Source of the DNA: an uncultured Candidatus Saccharibacteria bacterium
GTDB taxonomy: Bacteria; Patescibacteriota; WWE3; UBA101185; UBA10185
NCBI GenBank assembly: GCA_964385105.1
Contig: CAYLMU010000002.1
Location: forward strand, 250,583 to 314,582
Length of the DNA stretch: 64,000 nucleotides
Reading direction: 5' to 3'
The notes under the pieces are model-generated. The model did no database searches, was not told the origin of the DNA, and saw only the letters and a program-made list of their open reading frames with translations. A program made the position numbers and the translations under genes. Within the stretch, counting starts at the first letter, position 1. Every line of letters starts with the position of its first letter. Of this stretch, positions 1,226-64,000 are shown piece by piece.

Positions 1226-2803
1226 ATGAAAAATAAAAAAGCAGTATTATTTATTAGAGTATCAACGAAAGAACAAGCCGATGAGGGTAGTAGTCTTGAT
1301 GCTCAAAAAAGATTATTAAAAGATTATTCCGATAGAAAGAACTTAATCAAAAGTAAGATGGTTGAGGTATCAGAAAGTGCTAGAGGTAAGCAGGAAAGAA
1401 AAGCATTTAATGAATTGATAGAATACTTATACAGCCATCCAGATGTAAAAGATTTGATTTGCGAGAAGGTAGATAGGATTACTCGAAACTTCAAGGATGC
1501 AATCAAACTAAACGACTGGTTGGATGCTGATGAGGAGCGAAGGATTCACTTTGTTAAACAAAGTTTGATAATCCATAAAAACTCAACATCAAATGACAAG
1601 TTCCAATGGGACATTTACTTAGTTATGGCAAGACAATATAGTAACAACCTATCAGAGGAATCCAAGAAGGGTTTATATGAGCGTGCTACTCAGGGTTATT
1701 ATCCAGGAAATCAAAAGCGTGGTTACAAAACAATTGGAGAAGTCGGTAGGAAATCTTGGGTCATTGATGAGGATACAAAGGAACACAGGTCCATTAAAAA
1801 AGCATTTGAACTTTATGATACGGGTAACTTTACCTTAAGAACACTTTCATTAGAAATGGGAGAAAGAGGTTGGAAAGATTCCAAAGGTAAAAACATTTCA
1901 ACAAGTACTCTGCATAAACTTTTAAGTGACTGCTTTTATTGTGGTGAATTTACATTTGGTGGAAACCACTATCCTGATGGCAAACACGAGGCACTTATCT
2001 CACCAGAATTGTTTTATAGGGTTCAAGATAGACTAAACAGAAAAAACAAAGCGGGTAAGTTTAAGAAACATAGCTTTATTTTTGGCGGAGGGTTACTACA
2101 ATGTGGCGAATGTGGGCGAACAATTACTGCCGAGGAACAGAAAAAACACCACTACTATCATTGCACAAGGCACGAAACCGATTGTACACAAACAGAGTAT
2201 GTAAGAGAGGAACTAATAGAAAAACTTCTTACAACATTACTAGAGGGACTAAATGTTAGGAATAGTAAATTAAGTGAATGGATTAAGAAAGCTATCAAAG
2301 AAAATCACAAAGAGGAAGTCGAATACCACACAAGCACCATAACGCACCTAGATGCCGAATATAAGCGTGTACAAGACCGTCTAGATACTGCCTACGATGA
2401 TAAAGTAGATGGATTGATTAGCAAGGAACAGTATGAATCTGCAAGAGACAGGTATGAGAAACAATTGAAAGAAATTGTGGAGGCTAAAGCCAAACATACC
2501 GATTCCAATATAGATTATCTAAGGTTTGGAATGAACATTTTCGAATTGTCTCAAAAAGCAGCACAATTATACGAAAAGAAAGCTACACAAGATGATAAAA
2601 GACAACTACTTAGTTTTATATTTTCGAACCTAGAATTGAAAGATGGAAACATTGTACCTACCTATCATAATGGGTTTCAATTGGTTGCCAATCGGGCTAA
2701 AAGTGGTAATTGGCTGGGGGACAGGGATTCGAACCCCAATTTTCGGGACCAAAACCCGACGTGCTACCCTTACACCATCCCCCATCATCTTAAACCATGG
2801 TAA
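1226..2803 (+). CDS. large serine recombinase (resolvase/invertase N-domain + recombinase domain + zinc-ribbon)
   Basis: N-terminal AVLFIRVSTKEQ...SLDAQ with catalytic Ser context; DRITR motif; central recombinase domain; Cys cluster CGECGRT...HHYYHC; 3' 95 nt run antisense through tRNA-Gln. Confidence 0.85.
   Translation: MKNKKAVLFIRVSTKEQADEGSSLDAQKRLLKDYSDRKNLIKSKMVEVSESARGKQERKAFNELIEYLYSHPDVKDLICEKVDRITRNFKDAIKLNDWLDADEERRIHFVKQSLIIHKNSTSNDKFQWDIYLVMARQYSNNLSEESKKGLYERATQGYYPGNQKRGYKTIGEVGRKSWVIDEDTKEHRSIKKAFELYDTGNFTLRTLSLEMGERGWKDSKGKNISTSTLHKLLSDCFYCGEFTFGGNHYPDGKHEALISPELFYRVQDRLNRKNKAGKFKKHSFIFGGGLLQCGECGRTITAEEQKKHHYYHCTRHETDCTQTEYVREELIEKLLTTLLEGLNVRNSKLSEWIKKAIKENHKEEVEYHTSTITHLDAEYKRVQDRLDTAYDDKVDGLISKEQYESARDRYEKQLKEIVEAKAKHTDSNIDYLRFGMNIFELSQKAAQLYEKKATQDDKRQLLSFIFSNLELKDGNIVPTYHNGFQLVANRAKSGNWLGDRDSNPNFRDQNPTCYPYTIPHHLKPW
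2710..2783 (-). tRNA. tRNA-Gln (anticodon TTG)
   Basis: Manual fold of reverse complement: U1-A72 acceptor TGGGGGA/TCCCCCA, discriminator G, CCA encoded, anticodon loop TTTTGGT, T-loop TTCGAAT; resembles E. coli tRNA-Gln architecture. Confidence 0.85.
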
Positions 2804-2904: not shown

Positions 2905-3315
2905 CTATATGTGATCAGTAACTGCATTAAGCAATACGAAATAAAGCATTGCTATTACAGTTGACACTGCAGTTACTGGCAAATAGTAATGCCAACTTAG
3001 CACTTCCTCTAGGGAGGAGACACCGAGATAATCGCTGTAAAGTGCACTACCACCCACAAAAAATATCAGTGTTAGAGCGATAAAATGCAACACAGTTTTG
3101 TCAGTAAAACCACGTATAGACAAAACCACAGCAAGCGATAATAAGCCCATATAGCAGGATAGCATCAAAACATCAGTTACTACGTAAAATGCTGGTGCAA
3201 AAGCGGTGTACGCCACTTTAAATAGCACAGGAGTAACTATACTGTACAGCACTCCGTACAGCACTGCCGTCACTGCAACAACAACTACTCGCCGGGGTAA
3301 TCTTTTTGAAATCAT
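2905..3315 (-). CDS. small integral membrane protein (4 predicted TM segments), function unknown
   Basis: Hydrophobic segments throughout 136 aa. Confidence 0.4.
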   Translation of the reverse strand: MISKRLPRRVVVVAVTAVLYGVLYSIVTPVLFKVAYTAFAPAFYVVTDVLMLSCYMGLLSLAVVLSIRGFTDKTVLHFIALTLIFFVGGSALYSDYLGVSSLEEVLSWHYYLPVTAVSTVIAMLYFVLLNAVTDHI

Positions 3316-3463: not shown

Positions 3464-4546
3464 ATGAAAACAGGAATTGCCAACTTACCATTACACGGCG
3501 GACAGGCTCCACCTTGGCTTTTTAAAAAAATGACAGACCTGTCACGTGAAATAACCATTTATATCGTAGAAAACTACGGTTCTGATGAATTTTTAAATAG
3601 AGTTTCAAACCCAATCTGGTTTCAATCCTTAGGAAGTGTTTTAGGTTTTGACTGGCATAGCAGTGGACTCACAACTACCACTACCGCAGCTTTAAAAGAA
3701 GGAATAGAAGGAATGGAACACGAGCTTGGTATTTATATTTGCGGCGGAAAAGGAAAAACTGCAGTTAACACACCAAAAGAAATAGCAAATCATGCACCGC
3801 AAAATACAAATGCCTTAATTAAAGCTTCAAAATTAAGTGCAAAAGTAGACAATACGGCACTACAAGACGGATATAATTTATATCACCATGCTTTTTTCTT
3901 TAATAACAAAGGTAAATGGGCTGTTGTTCAACAGGGAATGAACGAACAAACAAAATATGCCCGAAGGTACCATTGGCTTTCTGATAACGTTAAGAGTTTT
4001 GTAGAAGAACCGCATGACGCTGTAGTGGGAGTAAAAGAAAAAAATACGCTAAACTTAGTCCACAAGAAAAGTAAAAAGTCACGAAAATCAATTGTTGAAG
4101 TTGCACAAGAAAACCCTGACAACACATTAAAGTTATGGAACAAAATAGTTGAACTCAACCTTCCTGCCAGACATGAAATTAAAGTTTCAGACTTACAGCC
4201 ACGCTTTTTAAAAAAAGTGCTTGTTCATACTTATGAAAATAAAACAAGTGATTTTGAAGACTTACTGGGAGTTGACGGTTTAGGCCCTAAAACTTTGCGC
4301 GCACTCACACTATTAGCTGAAGTAGCAACAGGAGCTCAGCCCTCATTTGAAGATCCGGTACAATATTCATTCGCCCATGGAGGAAAAGATGGTATCCCCT
4401 ACCCTGTTGACCGCAGAAACTATGACCATTCTATAAATTTTATGAAAAATGTAATTAATGGTGCAAAAATAGGTGTTAATGACAAAAGTGATGCATTAAA
4501 ACAATTGTACTTTTTTGAACAGGATGCAATTAGCACGACTAACTAG
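3464..4546 (+). CDS. DUF763-like protein (conserved archaeal/bacterial protein of unknown function)
   Basis: N-terminus MKTGIANLPLHGGQAPPWLF and internal GVDGLGPKTLRALTLLAEV resemble my recollection of DUF763 family; cannot verify without search. Confidence 0.4.
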   Translation: MKTGIANLPLHGGQAPPWLFKKMTDLSREITIYIVENYGSDEFLNRVSNPIWFQSLGSVLGFDWHSSGLTTTTTAALKEGIEGMEHELGIYICGGKGKTAVNTPKEIANHAPQNTNALIKASKLSAKVDNTALQDGYNLYHHAFFFNNKGKWAVVQQGMNEQTKYARRYHWLSDNVKSFVEEPHDAVVGVKEKNTLNLVHKKSKKSRKSIVEVAQENPDNTLKLWNKIVELNLPARHEIKVSDLQPRFLKKVLVHTYENKTSDFEDLLGVDGLGPKTLRALTLLAEVATGAQPSFEDPVQYSFAHGGKDGIPYPVDRRNYDHSINFMKNVINGAKIGVNDKSDALKQLYFFEQDAISTTN

Positions 4547-8762: not shown

Positions 8763-10031
8763 TTATTCCCTAATTACAACCTCAGCCACGCCATTCTCTT
8801 CTAACACATCAATCTCCTTATATTCAGGCAACACTGCGCTTCTAAACCACAATTTTTCGTTATTTATAGTGTATAAAACATGAGGAAGCTCATTATCAAG
8901 CTCTGTAAAAGTTTGTGATGCAATATTATATGTGTAAAACCTGGAATCCCCTAAATATAGATAAAGTGATGAATCGGTTTTTTCAACAATCCTCGGGGAC
9001 GTCTCTATTTCAAACGTTTGTAACTCAGCCAGTCTTTTTCCAAATAAGTCATAAACAACATAAGAATAAATATTTTCCAAACGACCGGGATTTTCTTCAT
9101 CAAACCTGATTCTATTGTTATATCCAAGCAAAGATTCGTTATTTATAAAAGCAGTTGCAAATTCACCTCCGGCAGCATATCCATTTTCAAAAGTTGAGAC
9201 TTTTCTTCCCGATTCAATGTCTAAAATAAATTGTGTGCTACCCTCAAGACATCCTTTAGTAATTAATAAAAGTTTTGAGTTTGGGCTTATATCGTCAACG
9301 TAATGGCTTGCACATAAATCATTATATCTAACCAAAAAAAAGTCTTTTATTTCTTGGCTTTCAAGTGTATAAACTCTTATACCATTTGAAGTAATTATTA
9401 ACTGCTTGTCATCAGGAGTAAACGATAAATCACGGAGTTGCATTTCAGTATTAACATTACTTATTCGATAAGCAAGTTTTGTTTCATCTGTTACAAAATC
9501 TTTAATGTAAACAGCATTTCCCCGCTTATTAACAAATAATTCATCTATGCCGGGCATAAAATCACTTTCAAGAATTGAATATGCAATTTTTGTTTTATCA
9601 TTACTTATTGCAAAATACAAAATATCCTCATCTGCCGACAATATAGTTGATATTTTACCGTCATCAACATTTAACATATATATATCGCCATTTTTAATGT
9701 AATAAAAAACTTTGTCTTTATTTAGCATTAACAAAGCTCTGGCATAAGCAGCACAAAATTTGTTCTCACAGGATTTATCAAATTTTTCTATAGGTAAGTC
9801 AACCTTTGCATTTTTTTCTACTGAATATGATGTTATTGGTGCAGCAGCAGTAATTTCAGAAGTATTAATTTCTTTGTTGCTGACATATCTTGAGTAAGCC
9901 ATTGAGATTAAAACTCCGGCTATTACTGCAATTAATAATGTTACACGGGCAATTCCTCGGTTAGTCACTGTTTTATTGTAACGGTAGTGCGTGGTTTTTA
10001 AAAGGTTTTTAAATGAATTCTGCCACAACAA
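8763..10031 (-). CDS. membrane-anchored beta-propeller (TolB/WD40-like) protein
   Basis: N-terminal TM anchor; repeated beta-strand-rich ~40-aa units with YxxxxDG-like turns; last gene of sortase operon. Confidence 0.4.
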   Translation of the reverse strand: MLWQNSFKNLLKTTHYRYNKTVTNRGIARVTLLIAVIAGVLISMAYSRYVSNKEINTSEITAAAPITSYSVEKNAKVDLPIEKFDKSCENKFCAAYARALLMLNKDKVFYYIKNGDIYMLNVDDGKISTILSADEDILYFAISNDKTKIAYSILESDFMPGIDELFVNKRGNAVYIKDFVTDETKLAYRISNVNTEMQLRDLSFTPDDKQLIITSNGIRVYTLESQEIKDFFLVRYNDLCASHYVDDISPNSKLLLITKGCLEGSTQFILDIESGRKVSTFENGYAAGGEFATAFINNESLLGYNNRIRFDEENPGRLENIYSYVVYDLFGKRLAELQTFEIETSPRIVEKTDSSLYLYLGDSRFYTYNIASQTFTELDNELPHVLYTINNEKLWFRSAVLPEYKEIDVLEENGVAEVVIRE

Positions 10032-57244: not shown

Positions 57245-57320
57245 TGGGGTGACCGACGGGGATCGAACCCGTGACATCCGCCTCCACAGGGCGGCGTTCT
57301 ACCGCTGAACTACGGCCACC
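57245..57320 (-). tRNA. tRNA-His (anticodon GTG) with genomically encoded G-1
   Basis: Extra 5' G pairing with discriminator C73, D-stem GTTC/GAAC, anticodon loop CTGTGGA, T-loop TTCGATC, CCA encoded. Confidence 0.9.
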
Positions 57321-59497: not shown

Positions 59498-59572
59498 GGC
59501 CCCATCGTCTAGTGGTTAGGACATCAGGTTTTCATCCTGGTAACCGGGGTTCGATTCCCCGTGGGGTCACCA
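59498..59572 (+). tRNA. tRNA-Glu (anticodon TTC)
   Basis: Acceptor GGCCCCA/TGGGGTC, D-arm GTCTAGTGGTTAGGAC, anticodon loop TTTTCAT, T-loop TTCGATT, CCA encoded. Confidence 0.9.
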
Positions 59573-61028
59573 TAGTGGAATTTCCAACACTAACTAGTTC
59601 GTTTAGCTCTACAATACAGGATTTAACAGGAGTTGTTAAATTTCCATTCAAATATACAATTCCATCAGGAAATAGTATTTTTTGCAACTTGTGTTTTGGA
59701 ACAATATCTAACTTTTCCCATTTTTTAGTCATACCAGTTAAAAACTGTAAACTATAGTTTAGTAGCTCTTCAGTCAGTACACTTGGATGTGCATACTTTG
59801 TAGTCTCTAGGTTCAGGTCAACAAGTTCTTTTTCAAACTCTGCCAATTTACTTTTAGCTAACTTGTCGCTGTATACACCGTTTATATTCTTTTCAACTAC
59901 CTTATCCTGTAACTGTTTTATTTCAACCCTTCTTTTTTCAATTGAAAGTAACTCTTTCTCGTACTTTTTACGATGACTTTCCCAATTTAGTATAAGAGCC
60001 TCCTTAATGATGGAAATGGTCTTAGAATTGAAATTAAGTGCTTCTATGTAGGCTTTAAATATGGGTTCTACAATATTTTTATTGATGTTAATACCCCTAC
60101 AATCTGTACATCTATAATGCCCTTGATTCTTTTTAGCCCAACTTGCAGTCATATACTTACCACAATGACATCTTAATGTACCTCTTAGTGGAAAGTCAGG
60201 ATTTAGCTTTTTGTATACGGGTAGTTTCTTTTTCTTTCCATCTAATATAACCTGCACTTTGTCAAAAACCTCTGGTTTAACAATTGCTTTAAAACTACCC
60301 TTTTTATATACGCCCATACTAGGTACATCAATCCAACCCTTATATACGGGATTTCTTAGCATTTTGTGAAAGTGGGATGTTGTTAATGCTTTTCCATTCT
60401 TTTTTGTTAAGCCCCAGGACTTACCCAACTGTCTTACCTCTTCAACGGTATTGTACCTCCTGTATATACAATCAAAAACTTTTCTGATAGGTTTTTCTAA
60501 TTCAGATAATGGTTCAATGTTTGAACTACCTTTTTCTCCAACAGTTTTAAATCCATAAGGTGCTTGAAAAGTCCATCTACCTTGTTTTAGAGCTTCTATC
60601 ATTCCATTTTTACTCCTCTCGCCTCTTATCTCGTTATCTAACTGCGCAATACCCGAAAGTGTATGTTCAATAAACCTACCTAACGGATTATCTTCAATTG
60701 GTTCTGTTATAGAAATAATCTGTACTTTACATGAAGTAAAAAATGTTTTTAAGGTTGCGTAATCAAAGGAATCTCTAGATAAACGGTCAATCTTGTATAT
60801 TAGTAAAACATCAATTTTACCTTCATTAAGTTTGCAATACTTCATCATCTTTTTGAGTTGTGTTCTATCTACTGTCTTTGCACTTTCACCCTCTTCAACA
60901 AACACTTTATCAACTGAATAGCCATTATTTTTAGCATAGCTTTTACACAATCTCTCTTGGGAGGCTAAACTGTTACCTTCAAACGCTTGTTCTGTTGTGG
61001 ATACTCTACAGTATATTATGGCGTTCAT
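59532..61028 (-). CDS. large serine recombinase
   Basis: N-terminal IIYCRVSTTEQ...SLASQ (catalytic Ser), DRLSRD motif, recombinase domain, Cys cluster CHCGKY...YRCTDC; last 41 nt overlap tRNA-Glu 3' half (C-terminal GIEPR translated from T-arm). Confidence 0.85.
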   Translation of the reverse strand: MNAIIYCRVSTTEQAFEGNSLASQERLCKSYAKNNGYSVDKVFVEEGESAKTVDRTQLKKMMKYCKLNEGKIDVLLIYKIDRLSRDSFDYATLKTFFTSCKVQIISITEPIEDNPLGRFIEHTLSGIAQLDNEIRGERSKNGMIEALKQGRWTFQAPYGFKTVGEKGSSNIEPLSELEKPIRKVFDCIYRRYNTVEEVRQLGKSWGLTKKNGKALTTSHFHKMLRNPVYKGWIDVPSMGVYKKGSFKAIVKPEVFDKVQVILDGKKKKLPVYKKLNPDFPLRGTLRCHCGKYMTASWAKKNQGHYRCTDCRGININKNIVEPIFKAYIEALNFNSKTISIIKEALILNWESHRKKYEKELLSIEKRRVEIKQLQDKVVEKNINGVYSDKLAKSKLAEFEKELVDLNLETTKYAHPSVLTEELLNYSLQFLTGMTKKWEKLDIVPKHKLQKILFPDGIVYLNGNLTTPVKSCIVELNELVSVGNSTMVTPRGIEPRLPG

Positions 61029-61189
61029 TTTTTCACCTCACATTTCTCTTCCAAGTAGCATTGAAGTATAAATTGAGCAAACTCATCTACAGCTTTTGAT
61101 ACTTCTTGTATTTTATCCTCGTTTTTTAAACTTGTACTTTTTTTGATTGCCTTAGCAATCTTTTTGAGTCTTTGTGTTTCATCACTCAC
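61025..61189 (-). CDS. small ORF (54 aa, GTG start) overlapping recombinase start codon (ATGA), possible directionality factor/regulator
   Basis: Hand translation VSDETQRLKKIAKAIKKSTSLKNEDKIQEVSKAVDEFAQFILQCYLEEKCEVKK; stop TGA shares bases with recombinase ATG. Confidence 0.2.
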   Translation of the reverse strand: MSDETQRLKKIAKAIKKSTSLKNEDKIQEVSKAVDEFAQFILQCYLEEKCEVKK

Positions 61190-61287
61190 GACTAGAATCT
61201 CCTAGCCTGTTTGAGTGCCTCTCAACACAAGACTTAAAACATTTAATTACTTGCTACTATCCTGTTAGGTTGTTGCTAACTCAGATA

Positions 61288-62133
61288 TTAGACTTTTATT
61301 ACATCTTCAAATTGATAATTTACAATCTTTCCATCTCTCTTTTGAACTTTTATATTGCTAAACTCCTTCTTTTTCATAATTTCAATAATTTCATCTTCAG
61401 TCAGTTCTTCAGCACCCTTTGTATTTTCACCATATACTTTATATGTACCTTTTCCTCTCATTATTGTGACTTTTGAGTAGTCTTTGTGTCTGATAATCTT
61501 AACAATTTCTAATTGTTCTTTTGTTAGATTGACAGCTTCAAAGAACCTCTCAAAGTCTATCAAAGGCGGATATTCCTTAAATTTTTTAACTAAATCTTTG
61601 TTTGCTGATTGCTCTAATGTCTTCCGCACTACTTCATTAAAGTTTAGGTGTAAAAATCCTGTTGATTCTGGTCTAGCCCAACCCTGAAAATACAATAAAC
61701 CAACTTCATCGCAAAACATTGATTTTCCATCAGGAAATAAAAGCCAAGACACTCTTAAGCCTTGTAATACTGCGTATATTGCTACTTCACCCCATATCAG
61801 TTCGTCACTTTGGAAAAGTGTCTCATCTTTCATTCCTTCATAGTAGAAATCATTCTTTAATGTTTTGAGTTGTTCATTTTTAATACCATACTTCCTACAT
61901 TCCATTATCATCATGAGATATATAACATCTTTTAGACTGAATGTACGCCATTTACCTTCTTGTTCTTGGGTATTTACCAATACATCACTTGCATCCAAAC
62001 TTGTTATTTGTCTATAAGAAAGTGTAGTGTCTGCAACTCTAAATCTTTTACCTCTTAGAATATCTAATAATTTTGGATTTTTTCCTACTGCTCTTATTGT
62101 TGCAAATATGTAACCGTCACTAAAGTTAATCAT
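61288..62133 (-). CDS. hypothetical protein (281 aa) within integrated element
   Basis: ORF only; located between recombinase and helicase-nuclease. Confidence 0.35.
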   Translation of the reverse strand: MINFSDGYIFATIRAVGKNPKLLDILRGKRFRVADTTLSYRQITSLDASDVLVNTQEQEGKWRTFSLKDVIYLMMIMECRKYGIKNEQLKTLKNDFYYEGMKDETLFQSDELIWGEVAIYAVLQGLRVSWLLFPDGKSMFCDEVGLLYFQGWARPESTGFLHLNFNEVVRKTLEQSANKDLVKKFKEYPPLIDFERFFEAVNLTKEQLEIVKIIRHKDYSKVTIMRGKGTYKVYGENTKGAEELTEDEIIEIMKKKEFSNIKVQKRDGKIVNYQFEDVIKV

Positions 62134-62192
62134 AAAATATACCTCTATGTATACTTTATAACACTATTGAAATTATACGGTCAAGTATATTT

Positions 62193-64000
62193 TTATGTAA
62201 TCTCGTTGAATACTTTAGAGAACTCCTGTTTTGTCATTTCCTCATTGTAAAAAGGTAAACCTACAAGTGTATATTCTCTGTCGTTATAAATAATTTCAGG
62301 CTTCGCCCTATCTCCCAATTCTAAAAGAAAATCCTGTTTCCAAGAGTCTAGGCTAAAGAGCTGTTGTCCTTTAGGCTCAACAAACAATTGCAGATATAGT
62401 TTCTTGTCATCCTTTTTATTATTTAAAAACAGTACAAAATCAGGTTCAAAAACTCTTCCATCCTCAAAGTTATAAAGTTTAAAAGCATTGGCATTTCTTA
62501 CTAAGAATATCTCATCATACTTATTCTTGAGTTCTTTATAAGCGTTGTCTATAAATTTTACAAAGTATTTTTCTTCCGATGTTCCAAAGTTGTCCTTGTA
62601 CGCATACCAGTCATTGTCTAAGATATCTAGATTAAACAATGGGTCTTGTGAGTACTGCATACTTTTACCAAATTGAGCATCGCTTGTATCATCTGTTGCA
62701 ATCTTTAATACTTTATCCTCGAAGATTTCAGAAACTCCTTTGGCTTTAAACTCATAAGTGCCTATATACTCTTCATTATCTGATTCTATTTGCCCTTGTA
62801 TTTCTCTTAGAATCTCAAGTGCTATATCTAGCTTTTCATCTTGAGTCATATTCTCAATAAATCCATTAGAACCATGTATTTCAACTTCAATCTGTTCAAA
62901 GAAACTTGGCACAGAATCTAACGATTTTATATTGGGAGTATACTTTTTCAGGTTGCTTAATCTATAAAATTCATTCTTATCCATTGCTTTTCTTATAACA
63001 TTAGAACCTAATTCAAGAAGTTTTAGTGTCTTTGACTTATCGGGTGCAAGTGATTCTACCTGAGATTCAAATACGATTGTTTCTCTGGTATAACCTGTGT
63101 GTAAGTTGTACTTATAGGAAGTCTTTATGTTGTAGTCTTCAAAGCTTGATTTATTCTTGTTAAGGTTTTTCTCCTTGTTATTTAGATATAAAATTCCTGT
63201 CTTCCAAAAATCAGATTCTTTAAAACTTTTCTTTAGCGTTAGTTCTTGCTCCTCTTCGAGTTGTGCCTTTATTCCCGTTTCCTTTAACGCCTGTGTTAAT
63301 TCTGAAATGTATTTTGGATTATAAGCACTGTGATAGTAAAGTTCTTCTAGTATTCTTAAGCTATTACTTATATCCTCGTCATATTTTCTCTTGTGTTTAT
63401 CCTGTTCCGCATTTAAGGAGAATGGGTAATATCGTGCACCTCTACCAATTAGTTGAGCTTCTGACATTGTTGTTTTTCCTACTCTACCTGACCTTGCATC
63501 TCTAGTATCATACAATCTAACAATATCGAACAAATTAAGAACATCCCATCCCTCATTAAGCTTATCTACGGCAAATATGGCTCTAATTTGGTTGTTTTCA
63601 TCCTCAAGCGTATTTACTAAAACTTGTTTCTCATCACTTTCATTTTTTGAGTTCACAGATATGCATTTCTCAGGTGAAAAGTCTTCTTGAAGTTCCAATA
63701 CTAGGCTTTCCAAATCTATGTTGTTTTCTTTAAAGTAGTGAAATGCCTTAGCAAGAACACCATTATTTTTACTGGCAACTTTCTGTATATCCGTGGCTTT
63801 GATAGTTGAAACAAATTCATGAAAGGCTTCTTCAAATTCCTCAGATGCTGATATGGTTTTTGATTTAAATAATATGACTGGTTTTAGAAATACTTTCTTA
63901 TCCTGAGCTACTTTTAAACGATATTGGCTCAAAATCATGGCTTGTAAAGCTCTTGTAAGGTTGTCTGTGTCAGTTTCTAGTACCTTAACATCCTTGGAGT
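62193..64000 (-). CDS. SF2 helicase + PD-(D/E)xK nuclease protein, Type III restriction Res-subunit-like (N-terminus beyond window)
   Basis: Helicase motif VI QLIGRGARY; C-terminal nuclease-like motifs FEPDFVLF ... LFVEPKG; reading frame stays open upstream of listed Met to the window edge. Confidence 0.5.
   Translation of the reverse strand, partial: SKDVKVLETDTDNLTRALQAMILSQYRLKVAQDKKVFLKPVILFKSKTISASEEFEEAFHEFVSTIKATDIQKVASKNNGVLAKAFHYFKENNIDLESLVLELQEDFSPEKCISVNSKNESDEKQVLVNTLEDENNQIRAIFAVDKLNEGWDVLNLFDIVRLYDTRDARSGRVGKTTMSEAQLIGRGARYYPFSLNAEQDKHKRKYDEDISNSLRILEELYYHSAYNPKYISELTQALKETGIKAQLEEEQELTLKKSFKESDFWKTGILYLNNKEKNLNKNKSSFEDYNIKTSYKYNLHTGYTRETIVFESQVESLAPDKSKTLKLLELGSNVIRKAMDKNEFYRLSNLKKYTPNIKSLDSVPSFFEQIEVEIHGSNGFIENMTQDEKLDIALEILREIQGQIESDNEEYIGTYEFKAKGVSEIFEDKVLKIATDDTSDAQFGKSMQYSQDPLFNLDILDNDWYAYKDNFGTSEEKYFVKFIDNAYKELKNKYDEIFLVRNANAFKLYNFEDGRVFEPDFVLFLNNKKDDKKLYLQLFVEPKGQQLFSLDSWKQDFLLELGDRAKPEIIYNDREYTLVGLPFYNEEMTKQEFSKVFNEIT

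Follow-up and report, generated by a model that had tools for sequence, protein, structure and literature searches.

A putative 7.75-kb serine-recombinase element carrying a Type III restriction-modification operon at the 3' end of tRNA-Glu in an uncultured Patescibacteria bacterium

Serine integrases are usually described at protein-coding or intergenic sites, and tRNA genes are seen as the domain of tyrosine integrases, whose islands commonly cross over deep in the tRNA and bring their own copy of its 3' half. Here we analyze a 64,000-nucleotide stretch of DNA (the window; contig CAYLMU010000002.1, positions 250,583 to 314,582) from an uncultured Candidatus Saccharibacteria bacterium of the Patescibacteria, in which a large serine recombinase, named SR1 here, overlaps a tRNA-Glu gene and appears to belong to a 7.75-kb element with a Type III restriction-modification (R-M) operon.

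The phage-type large serine integrases, such as those of phiC31, Bxb1, TP901-1 and A118, share with SR1 the order of resolvase catalytic and recombinase regions followed by what may be a zinc ribbon in SR1, a short identity between attachment (att) sites and a crossover only a few bases wide. SR1 differs from them in targeting the 3' terminus of a tRNA rather than a protein-coding or intergenic site, in a chromosomal attachment site (attB) with only one half-site in conserved sequence, and in an element attachment site (attP) that probably lies within the recombinase open reading frame (ORF). Its carrier is also a 6–8-kb island and not a phage, and its identity to the phage enzymes is roughly 23–31%. 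The tyrosine-integrase tRNA islands (Islander-type islands and tycheposons) resemble the SR1 island in adjoining an intact tRNA, in a tRNA-proximal integrase gene, in defense or adaptive cargo and in tandem arrays at one tRNA. In contrast to these islands, SR1 is of the serine type, the repeat measures 3–13 nt instead of tens, and the crossover appears to fall at nt 71–73 of the tRNA rather than in the anticodon or T loop.

In SSV1-type integrases of archaeal viruses, attP lies inside the integrase gene and integration splits the product; in the integration-dependent immunity of mycobacteriophage BPs, attP lies inside the repressor gene and integration alters its product. Those systems use tyrosine recombinases, whereas here the last 35–39 codons of a serine recombinase would be exchanged. 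Among tycheposons, a large serine recombinase is found instead in 27 of 937 elements (bioRxiv 10.1101/2020.12.28.424599). The literature, which we covered incompletely, yielded no account of serine recombinases that target tRNA 3' ends in Patescibacteria, nor any mention of a serine integrase gene that contains its own attP. The locus differs from the described systems in its tRNA-terminus target, a crossover that spares the tRNA, an attP in the recombinase ORF as far as it can be reconstructed, and small R-M shuttles that stack in tandem.

Boundaries of the element and position of the crossover

The presumed integration target, on the attL (tRNA-proximal junction) side, is an intact tRNA-Glu(UUC) gene with encoded CCA at 59498–59572 on the forward strand (tRNA-Glu(ttc) by ARAGORN); the same gene stands beside the SBP and tRNA-His genes in two related contigs, L092 and L094. 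Relatives of this SBP gene carry the names WWE3 or Patescibacteria, in keeping with a Patescibacteria host. SR1, in its integrated form of 498 residues, is encoded on the reverse strand at 59532–61028. Its last 41 nt (59532–59572) read through the 3' half of the tRNA in antisense, an overlap that an earlier note on this DNA had recognized, and about the last 10 codons of the protein tail (...MVTPRGIEPRLPG*) come from antisense tRNA. This arrangement recurs in four SR1 homologues of 51–59% identity (L084, L085, L086 and L088), where the recombinase overlaps a convergent tRNA-Glu by 38–41 nt, a recurrence that speaks against a chance overlap.

The stretch was extended through an identical contig of a second assembly, Logan contig L001 (9,457 nt, SRR9016296), from which all data past position 64000 derive, including the far junction (attR). 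L001 matches window positions 59543–64000 without a mismatch over 4,458 nt and encodes the exact 281-residue protein discussed below. The earlier note anticipated that the end of tRNA-Glu would be repeated directly at the far boundary, and such a repeat is present. The 11-bp attL core TGGGGTCACCA (59562–59572, unstranded), which is the last 11 nt of tRNA-Glu, has exactly two copies in L001, both in one orientation and separated by 7,753 bp, whereas none of 200 shuffles of that contig contains it. The second copy lies outside the window at L001 1675–1685 (window-equivalent 67315–67325), within the 3' end of SR2, the gene of another large serine recombinase.

We estimate a probability of roughly 85% that the sequence between these copies is a 7,753-bp integrative element inserted by SR1 at the very 3' end of tRNA-Glu(UUC), of which window positions 59567–64000 would be the tRNA-proximal 4.4 kb. 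From the tRNA outward, its gene order is SR1, a 54-residue ORF, a 281-residue partner, Res, Mod and a 132-residue helix-turn-helix (HTH) protein, followed by the apparently severed 3' part of the SR1 gene. The defense island delivered by a serine recombinase that the earlier note envisaged is borne out as an R-M-carrying element; however, it is small and not open-ended, and another element with a serine recombinase adjoins it in tandem.

Independent Logan assemblies are interrupted within the tRNA-Glu gene (window 59543–59564; starts of L089 and L090), both for this organism (L091/L001) and for its 78%-identity relative (L089, L090). These breaks fit a tRNA that is a repeat or variable junction in these communities, and they are silent on excision. 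We rejected them as a sign of excision, given that L091 and L001 stop in the tRNA T-arm as in a generic repeat and that L001 crosses attR unbroken.

SR1-family loci were found by protein search and their contigs retrieved, giving seven loci: the present one, L082 and L084–L088. The integrated elements measure 7,753 bp here and 7,893, 7,700, roughly 7,416 and 5,742 bp in the others. At the far ends of L084 and L086, the exact motif ACCATTTTACAAC directly follows a short remnant of the tRNA end; the present element, L085 and L088 have variants of this motif. Beyond the far ends lie host genes that are unrelated between loci.

Counted in antisense from the tRNA 3' end, the identity between the two junctions spans positions 1–11 in the present element (11 nt), 1–8 in L085 (8 nt), 4–11 in L086 (8 nt), 1–13 in L088 (13 nt) and 4–6 in L084 (3 nt). 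Because these five blocks intersect at TGA (antisense), we infer that the crossover occurred in the TCA at 59567–59569, which is T71-C72-A73 of the tRNA, directly 5' of the CCA. With a crossover in the last 3 nt before the CCA, most of the overlapped tRNA sequence would therefore be chromosomal. The 41-nt overlap is real but is not the attachment identity, as only 11 nt are repeated. The tRNA-Glu keeps every base, and the element contributes only the final bases including the CCA. The short att sites with little identity between attP and attB that are typical of serine integrases are found here as well (3–13 nt in the five elements), and the exchange dinucleotide probably lies within the TGA block. 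Among the five elements compared, the tRNA-distal chromosomal arms have no evident common motif, the arm of the present element being the SR2 end, which suggests that attB is recognized mainly through its tRNA-side half-site.

The SR1 recombinase and a probable attachment site within its gene

SR1 is a member of the large serine recombinases. It matches Resolvase (PF00239, 9.7e-34) over residues 3–152 and, after this catalytic domain, Recombinase (PF07508, 9.1e-08; 32.7 bits against a cut-off of 21.1). The match to Zn_ribbon_recom (PF13408) scores 20.9 bits, under the cut-off of 25.3, and the cysteine clusters CHCG (287) and CTDC (307) are present. The catalytic residues R8, S10 and D81-R82-L83-R85 (DRLSR) are all in place and are invariant or nearly so in 32 homologues; the same pattern is quoted for Bxb1 (PMC12884075). 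The best PHROG match is the integrase family PHROG 95 (2.4e-73), and among solved structures the catalytic domain of the TP901-1 integrase comes closest (7.1e-14).

The top NCBIfam matches of SR1 are XisF (1.1e-29, score 104 against a cut-off of 375) and CcrB (5.9e-21, 75 against 900), yet both are far under the family cut-offs, and target and genomic context differ from those families. The Ccr equivalog scores range from 55 to 75 bits against cut-offs of 700–900. Scans with Pfam, NCBIfam and PHROG found no tyrosine recombinase, leaving the serine type as the only recombinase of the element. A scan of metagenomes for SR1 returned only two loci.

The far end of the element appears to hold the missing end of the SR1 gene. 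When the SR1 3' end and the far end are joined at TGA (reconstructed attP junction GGAAATTCCACTATGGTGACCCCAAGACCATCATTTTACAACC), the ORF stays open and in frame and gains a tail of 35–39 residues in all five elements, while each far end is riddled with stop codons in the remaining two frames. The rebuilt tails show a common pattern (...VTPRPSFYNQLTSELVAVGNLVKDYELVG... here, ...LKKPFYNSVIESLTELGSLIKTFNLQS... in L086). Between L084 and L086, 10 of the 17 changed tail codons are synonymous, and the conservation of the tail reaches about 100 nt, exceeding the size of an att arm. Among 120 SR1 homologues, the majority end in antisense-tRNA peptides, and a minority of 518–535 residues have contiguous tails that align with the rebuilt ones (P0013, P0018, P0022, P0039, P0047, P0065, P0081 and P0098, together with the L082 and L087 proteins). 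Because these database homologues carry the tail uninterrupted, attP probably lies inside the recombinase gene, about 38 codons before its end.

In L082 and L087, the recombinase genes can be read as the unintegrated configuration, because their tails align with the rebuilt attP tails. We considered the L082/L087 junction as an alternative, non-tRNA target and dropped the idea, since the tails match the rebuilt ones; an Rfam search at this junction gave no match.

The mechanism that these comparisons point to is as follows. SR1 would have recombined its attP with attB, crossing over in T71-C72-A73 of tRNA-Glu, so that the tRNA body would stay chromosomal and the element would supply the last bases including the CCA. 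Integration would thereby split the SR1 gene, converting the reconstructed 527-residue protein into the 498-residue form, with the conserved C-terminal tail traded for about 10 antisense-tRNA residues. One further reading is less likely than not. A recombinase gene that spans its own attP could yield two isoforms, an episomal one of 527 residues with the conserved tail and an integrated one of 498 residues with an antisense-tRNA peptide. The tail swap might then be a switch, built into the element, that sets the activity, stability or directionality of the enzyme; in this reading attB would require the tRNA-side half-site alone.

Several points weigh against the account given above. The attR junction and all sequence beyond 64000 rest on L001 and not on the window, and public contigs from the same sample end within the tRNA T-arm and are uninformative. 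The crossover call depends partly on L084, a locus with TGA as the only sequence shared at its left junction; without this locus, the interval widens to about nt 69–73. The five elements share ancestry, and the in-frame continuity of their tails does not amount to five independent observations. The zinc-ribbon match of SR1 lies under the Pfam threshold, and no GC contrast sets the element apart (0.329 against 0.35). Finally, no direct sign of excision or of a circular molecule was obtained for this element, and both its excision and its activity are inferred.

This last point bears on an explanation that we consider rather unlikely, in which the element is a fossil of one past integration that is now immobile, with the overlap of recombinase and tRNA as a leftover. 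No evidence of excision was obtained, and loss of the conserved C-terminal tail on integration could inactivate SR1. However, every ORF is intact, the catalytic residues are in place and the tail exon, although detached, is preserved. The L082 relative, with an 89% identical recombinase, has different cargo and an apparently unintegrated configuration. The R-M cargo also varies among relatives, which implies recent turnover.

SR2, the tandem arrangement and other occupied tRNA genes

SR2 encodes a 579-residue protein outside the window (L001 14–1753) that is only 22% identical to SR1. On L001 the two recombinase genes lie 5.5 kb apart in the same orientation, with the R-M operon between them. 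SR2 belongs to a family found at 80 Patescibacteria loci with 54–73% identity. In 51 of the 80, the 3' end of the ORF overlaps a convergent tRNA gene, mostly Glu and also Gln, Lys, Arg, Ser, Asp and Val, and at several more the contig stops within an antisense-tRNA-like tail. The tails of this family usually end in antisense tRNA (...GDPTGNRTP...), and the conserved protein stops about 10 residues before the tRNA 3' end. SR2 itself reads ...YPFGDPK in L001, where ...FGDPK is all that it keeps of the tRNA-derived end (the 11 nt, in a frame differing from that of the SR1 copy), and then leaves tRNA sequence for sequence homologous to the SR1-element far ends.

Because the far-end 11-bp repeat sits inside the SR2 3' end, we read the locus as two elements in tandem. 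The simplest reading is that the SR2 element was first at the tRNA-Glu and that the SR1 element later entered this pre-occupied site between the tRNA body and its last 11 nt. The predicted sequence of the site next to SR2, with the SR1 element removed, is CCCTTTTGGTGACCCCACGGGGAATCGAACC. An insertion between the tRNA body and SR2 again suggests recognition mainly by the tRNA-side half-site.

The R-M operon flanked by two large serine recombinase genes of the same orientation could also suggest one composite element with two recombinases, comparable to CcrA/CcrB in the staphylococcal cassette chromosome (SCC), whose true far boundary would lie past SR2. We find this quite improbable. The SR1-family elements of L084, L086 and L088 lack SR2 and have the same far-end motif beside unrelated host genes, and SR2-family genes elsewhere abut a tRNA alone. 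The SR2 3' end retains exactly the terminal 11 nt of tRNA-Glu, in a frame unlike that of SR1. Unlike the CcrAB pair, the two diverged SR1 and SR2 genes are not adjacent and, in the tandem arrangement, sit in separate elements.

Several further observations concern SR2 and its family. SR1, the 281-residue protein and Mod are recorded on a 319-kb NCBI contig (the SR1 protein being identical to P0001), and the exact SR2 protein is recorded from the Logan assembly only; on the NCBI contig, SR2 may carry another annotation or be listed as a pseudogene. Within 10 kb upstream of SR2-family genes, no tRNA repeats of at least 12 nt were found at the 51 loci. About 20 loci of this family (L002–L067) share a non-coding block 4–9 kb upstream (e.g. 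L003, about 3985–4090), in which the inverted repeat TTGCAAGGGC...GCCCTTGCAAA is followed first by TCACCCCGCT and next by a GC-rich hairpin (GGAAGCAGGC..GCCTGCTTCC). This block has no Rfam match and may be an element end, an origin of transfer (oriT) or a small RNA.

A conserved gene on the opposite strand, about 2.3–2.7 kb upstream of SR2-family genes in L002–L080, encodes ...DFYLYVDEFQNFATPSFAQILSEARKY..., which we take to resemble the C-terminal region of TraG/VirD4 coupling proteins; if so, this would hint that SR2-type elements are mobilizable. In four SR2 homologues (L039, L032, L033 and L021), only the first antisense-tRNA tail codons are kept (e.g. ...FGDPRLLETERN...) with no adjoining tRNA, as in the present SR2, and it is likely that other elements have inserted in tandem at this junction.

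The same site was also compared in relatives. L092 (GCA_049322215.1; SBP 62% identical) has the same tRNA-Glu/SBP/tRNA-His locus without a recombinase, providing the related genome that lacks the insertion. Its tRNA-Glu is followed by a 145-nt spacer between 19-nt repeats of the tRNA 3' end, TGGTGACCCCACGGGGAAT (9667–9685 and 9813–9831), which looks like the scar of a lost element with a crossover deeper in the tRNA. In L094, the orthologous tRNA-Glu site is occupied by a different, SR2-like recombinase.

A deep crossover at the present locus itself, in the anticodon or T loop, would make the whole 41-nt overlap element DNA, with the element bringing its own tRNA 3' half. Such an arrangement is usual for tyrosine-integrase islands, and the SR1 ORF does overlap the tRNA, yet this classical geometry is scarcely credible here. 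A deeper crossover would leave a displaced tRNA 3' fragment no shorter than the distance to the crossover, and none of tens of nucleotides is present at the distal end, where only 11 nt are repeated (3–13 nt in the four relatives). A reading of the locus as the terminal part of a prophage, or of a phage satellite, with a serine-type integrase can be set aside, as the top PHROG match is indeed a phage integrase family but profile scans of the mapped 7.75 kb found no structural, packaging or replication genes and an IMG/VR search returned no close SR1 relative (best match 26–31% identical).

Targeting of tRNA genes extends beyond SR1 and SR2. A third large serine recombinase with Resolvase, Recombinase and zinc-ribbon domains, 525 residues long and 27% identical to SR1, is encoded at 1226–2803 on the forward strand. 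It reads antisense through the whole of a convergent tRNA-Gln(ttg) gene (2711–2784, reverse strand), giving the tail ...SGNWLGDRDSNPNFRDQNP..., and its element runs off the start of the window. With this recombinase at tRNA-Gln beside SR1 and SR2, at least three unrelated serine recombinases sit at tRNA ends in one genome.

The window tRNA-His (57245–57319) is unoccupied, in contrast to that of the relative, where yet another serine recombinase, of 524 residues (L093 3115–4689, reverse strand), overlaps tRNA-His (3127–3201, forward strand). Beside it are a Type I R-M system (HsdM/S/R) and a small resolvase (L092 14508–21425). A convergent tRNA at the stop codon was found at 0 of 69 phage large serine recombinase loci in IMG/VR, an imperfect control in which many contigs are not integrated. 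The earlier note had called tRNA targeting by large serine recombinases less commonly documented than that by tyrosine integrases; to this we add that, in Patescibacteria, several clades of these recombinases target tRNA genes throughout the family.

Cargo, accessory genes and biological meaning

The cargo of the element is, by homology, a complete mod-res Type III R-M operon. Res occupies 62193–64000 on the reverse strand, with the C-terminal 602 of its 861 codons in the window and the remainder running on to window-equivalent 64778. The window part holds the helicase C-terminal motifs and the PD-(D/E)xK nuclease, and it matches the PADLOC model REase_III at 2.3e-79; the full 861-residue protein in L001, whose N-terminal part matches ResIII (PF04851, 1e-32) and DEAD in Pfam, reaches 1.6e-137 and covers positions 32–854 of 873. 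The earlier assignment of this superfamily 2 (SF2) helicase and nuclease to Type III Res was correct, and a non-defense helicase class is not borne out.

Mod, presumed by the earlier note to lie just past the window edge, is found there, directly upstream of Res: a 632-residue protein at L001 2320–4218, outside the window, with matches to TypeIII_RM_meth (PF12564, 2.5e-21), N6_N4_Mtase (PF01555, 1.2e-33) and the PADLOC model MTase_III (1.9e-128), and with DPPY and FxGxG motifs. Only 4 nt separate the end of mod from the start of res. In gene order, in the domains and motifs of Mod and in the SF2 helicase with C-terminal nuclease of Res, the operon is like EcoP15I-type systems, with nothing unusual seen. 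It would presumably give phage defense and post-segregational stability.

Two small genes accompany the recombinase. The earlier note listed the recombinase, the 281-residue gene and the helicase-nuclease correctly but missed a 54-residue ORF at 61025–61189 (reverse strand), which encodes a helical protein and shares 4 nt with the start of SR1. All seven SR1-family loci have this ORF; its homologues in L082 and L084–L088 have 51–73 residues, each ending 4 nt within the recombinase gene, and profile scans against Pfam, NCBIfam, PADLOC and PHROG gave no family match. The 281-residue gene (61288–62133, reverse strand) is real. Its product has a weak HTH signal, MerR/GlnR-like, at N-terminal residues 36–92 (profile against PDB, E 0.004), and we propose that it is a DNA-binding accessory factor.

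In L082 and L084–L088, the small ORF and the recombinase are immediately preceded by a homologue of the 281-residue protein (a family of 258–281 residues with 24–36% identity), and 539 representative clusters make up the family. An AlphaFold2 model reached a predicted local distance difference test (pLDDT) score of 88.4 and had no Foldseek match in PDB or BFVD. Because the two genes are strictly linked to the recombinase, they are the likeliest candidates for directionality or regulation: SR1 would integrate by recombining attP with attB, and either gene may encode the directionality factor for excision.

The cargo changes from one SR1-family element to the next. Other R-M systems occur in two of the four tRNA-Glu-seated relatives, namely a Type IIG enzyme with a specificity subunit in L084 and Dcm/EcoRII/Vsr in L086, and on one partial contig, L082, which has R.HinP1I and a SocA/Panacea pair. 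The cargo of L085 and L088 has no assigned type. In L087 (5363–12221) we observed PLDc_2, an HTH protein, a Gabija-like pair (OLD-type ATPase/TOPRIM and UvrD helicase) and DUF2130, and SR1-family cargo therefore extends beyond R-M systems.

These comparisons place at least three unrelated serine-recombinase lineages at tRNA 3' ends in one Patescibacteria genome, a habit seen in more than 50 related loci. The SR1 lineage points to a route by which the tRNA survives, namely a crossover in the last bases before the CCA. Since tRNA termini offer conserved landing sites, a gene-splitting attP and an apparently one-sided recognition of attB might be of use to the engineering of integrases. If the tentative two-isoform switch and one-sided attB were true, unrelated elements could stack at one tRNA, and tRNA termini would be a near-universal natural landing site for recombinases. 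For these small-genome, mostly uncultured bacteria, elements of 6–8 kb that shuttle varied R-M systems are a plausible main route of defense-gene exchange.

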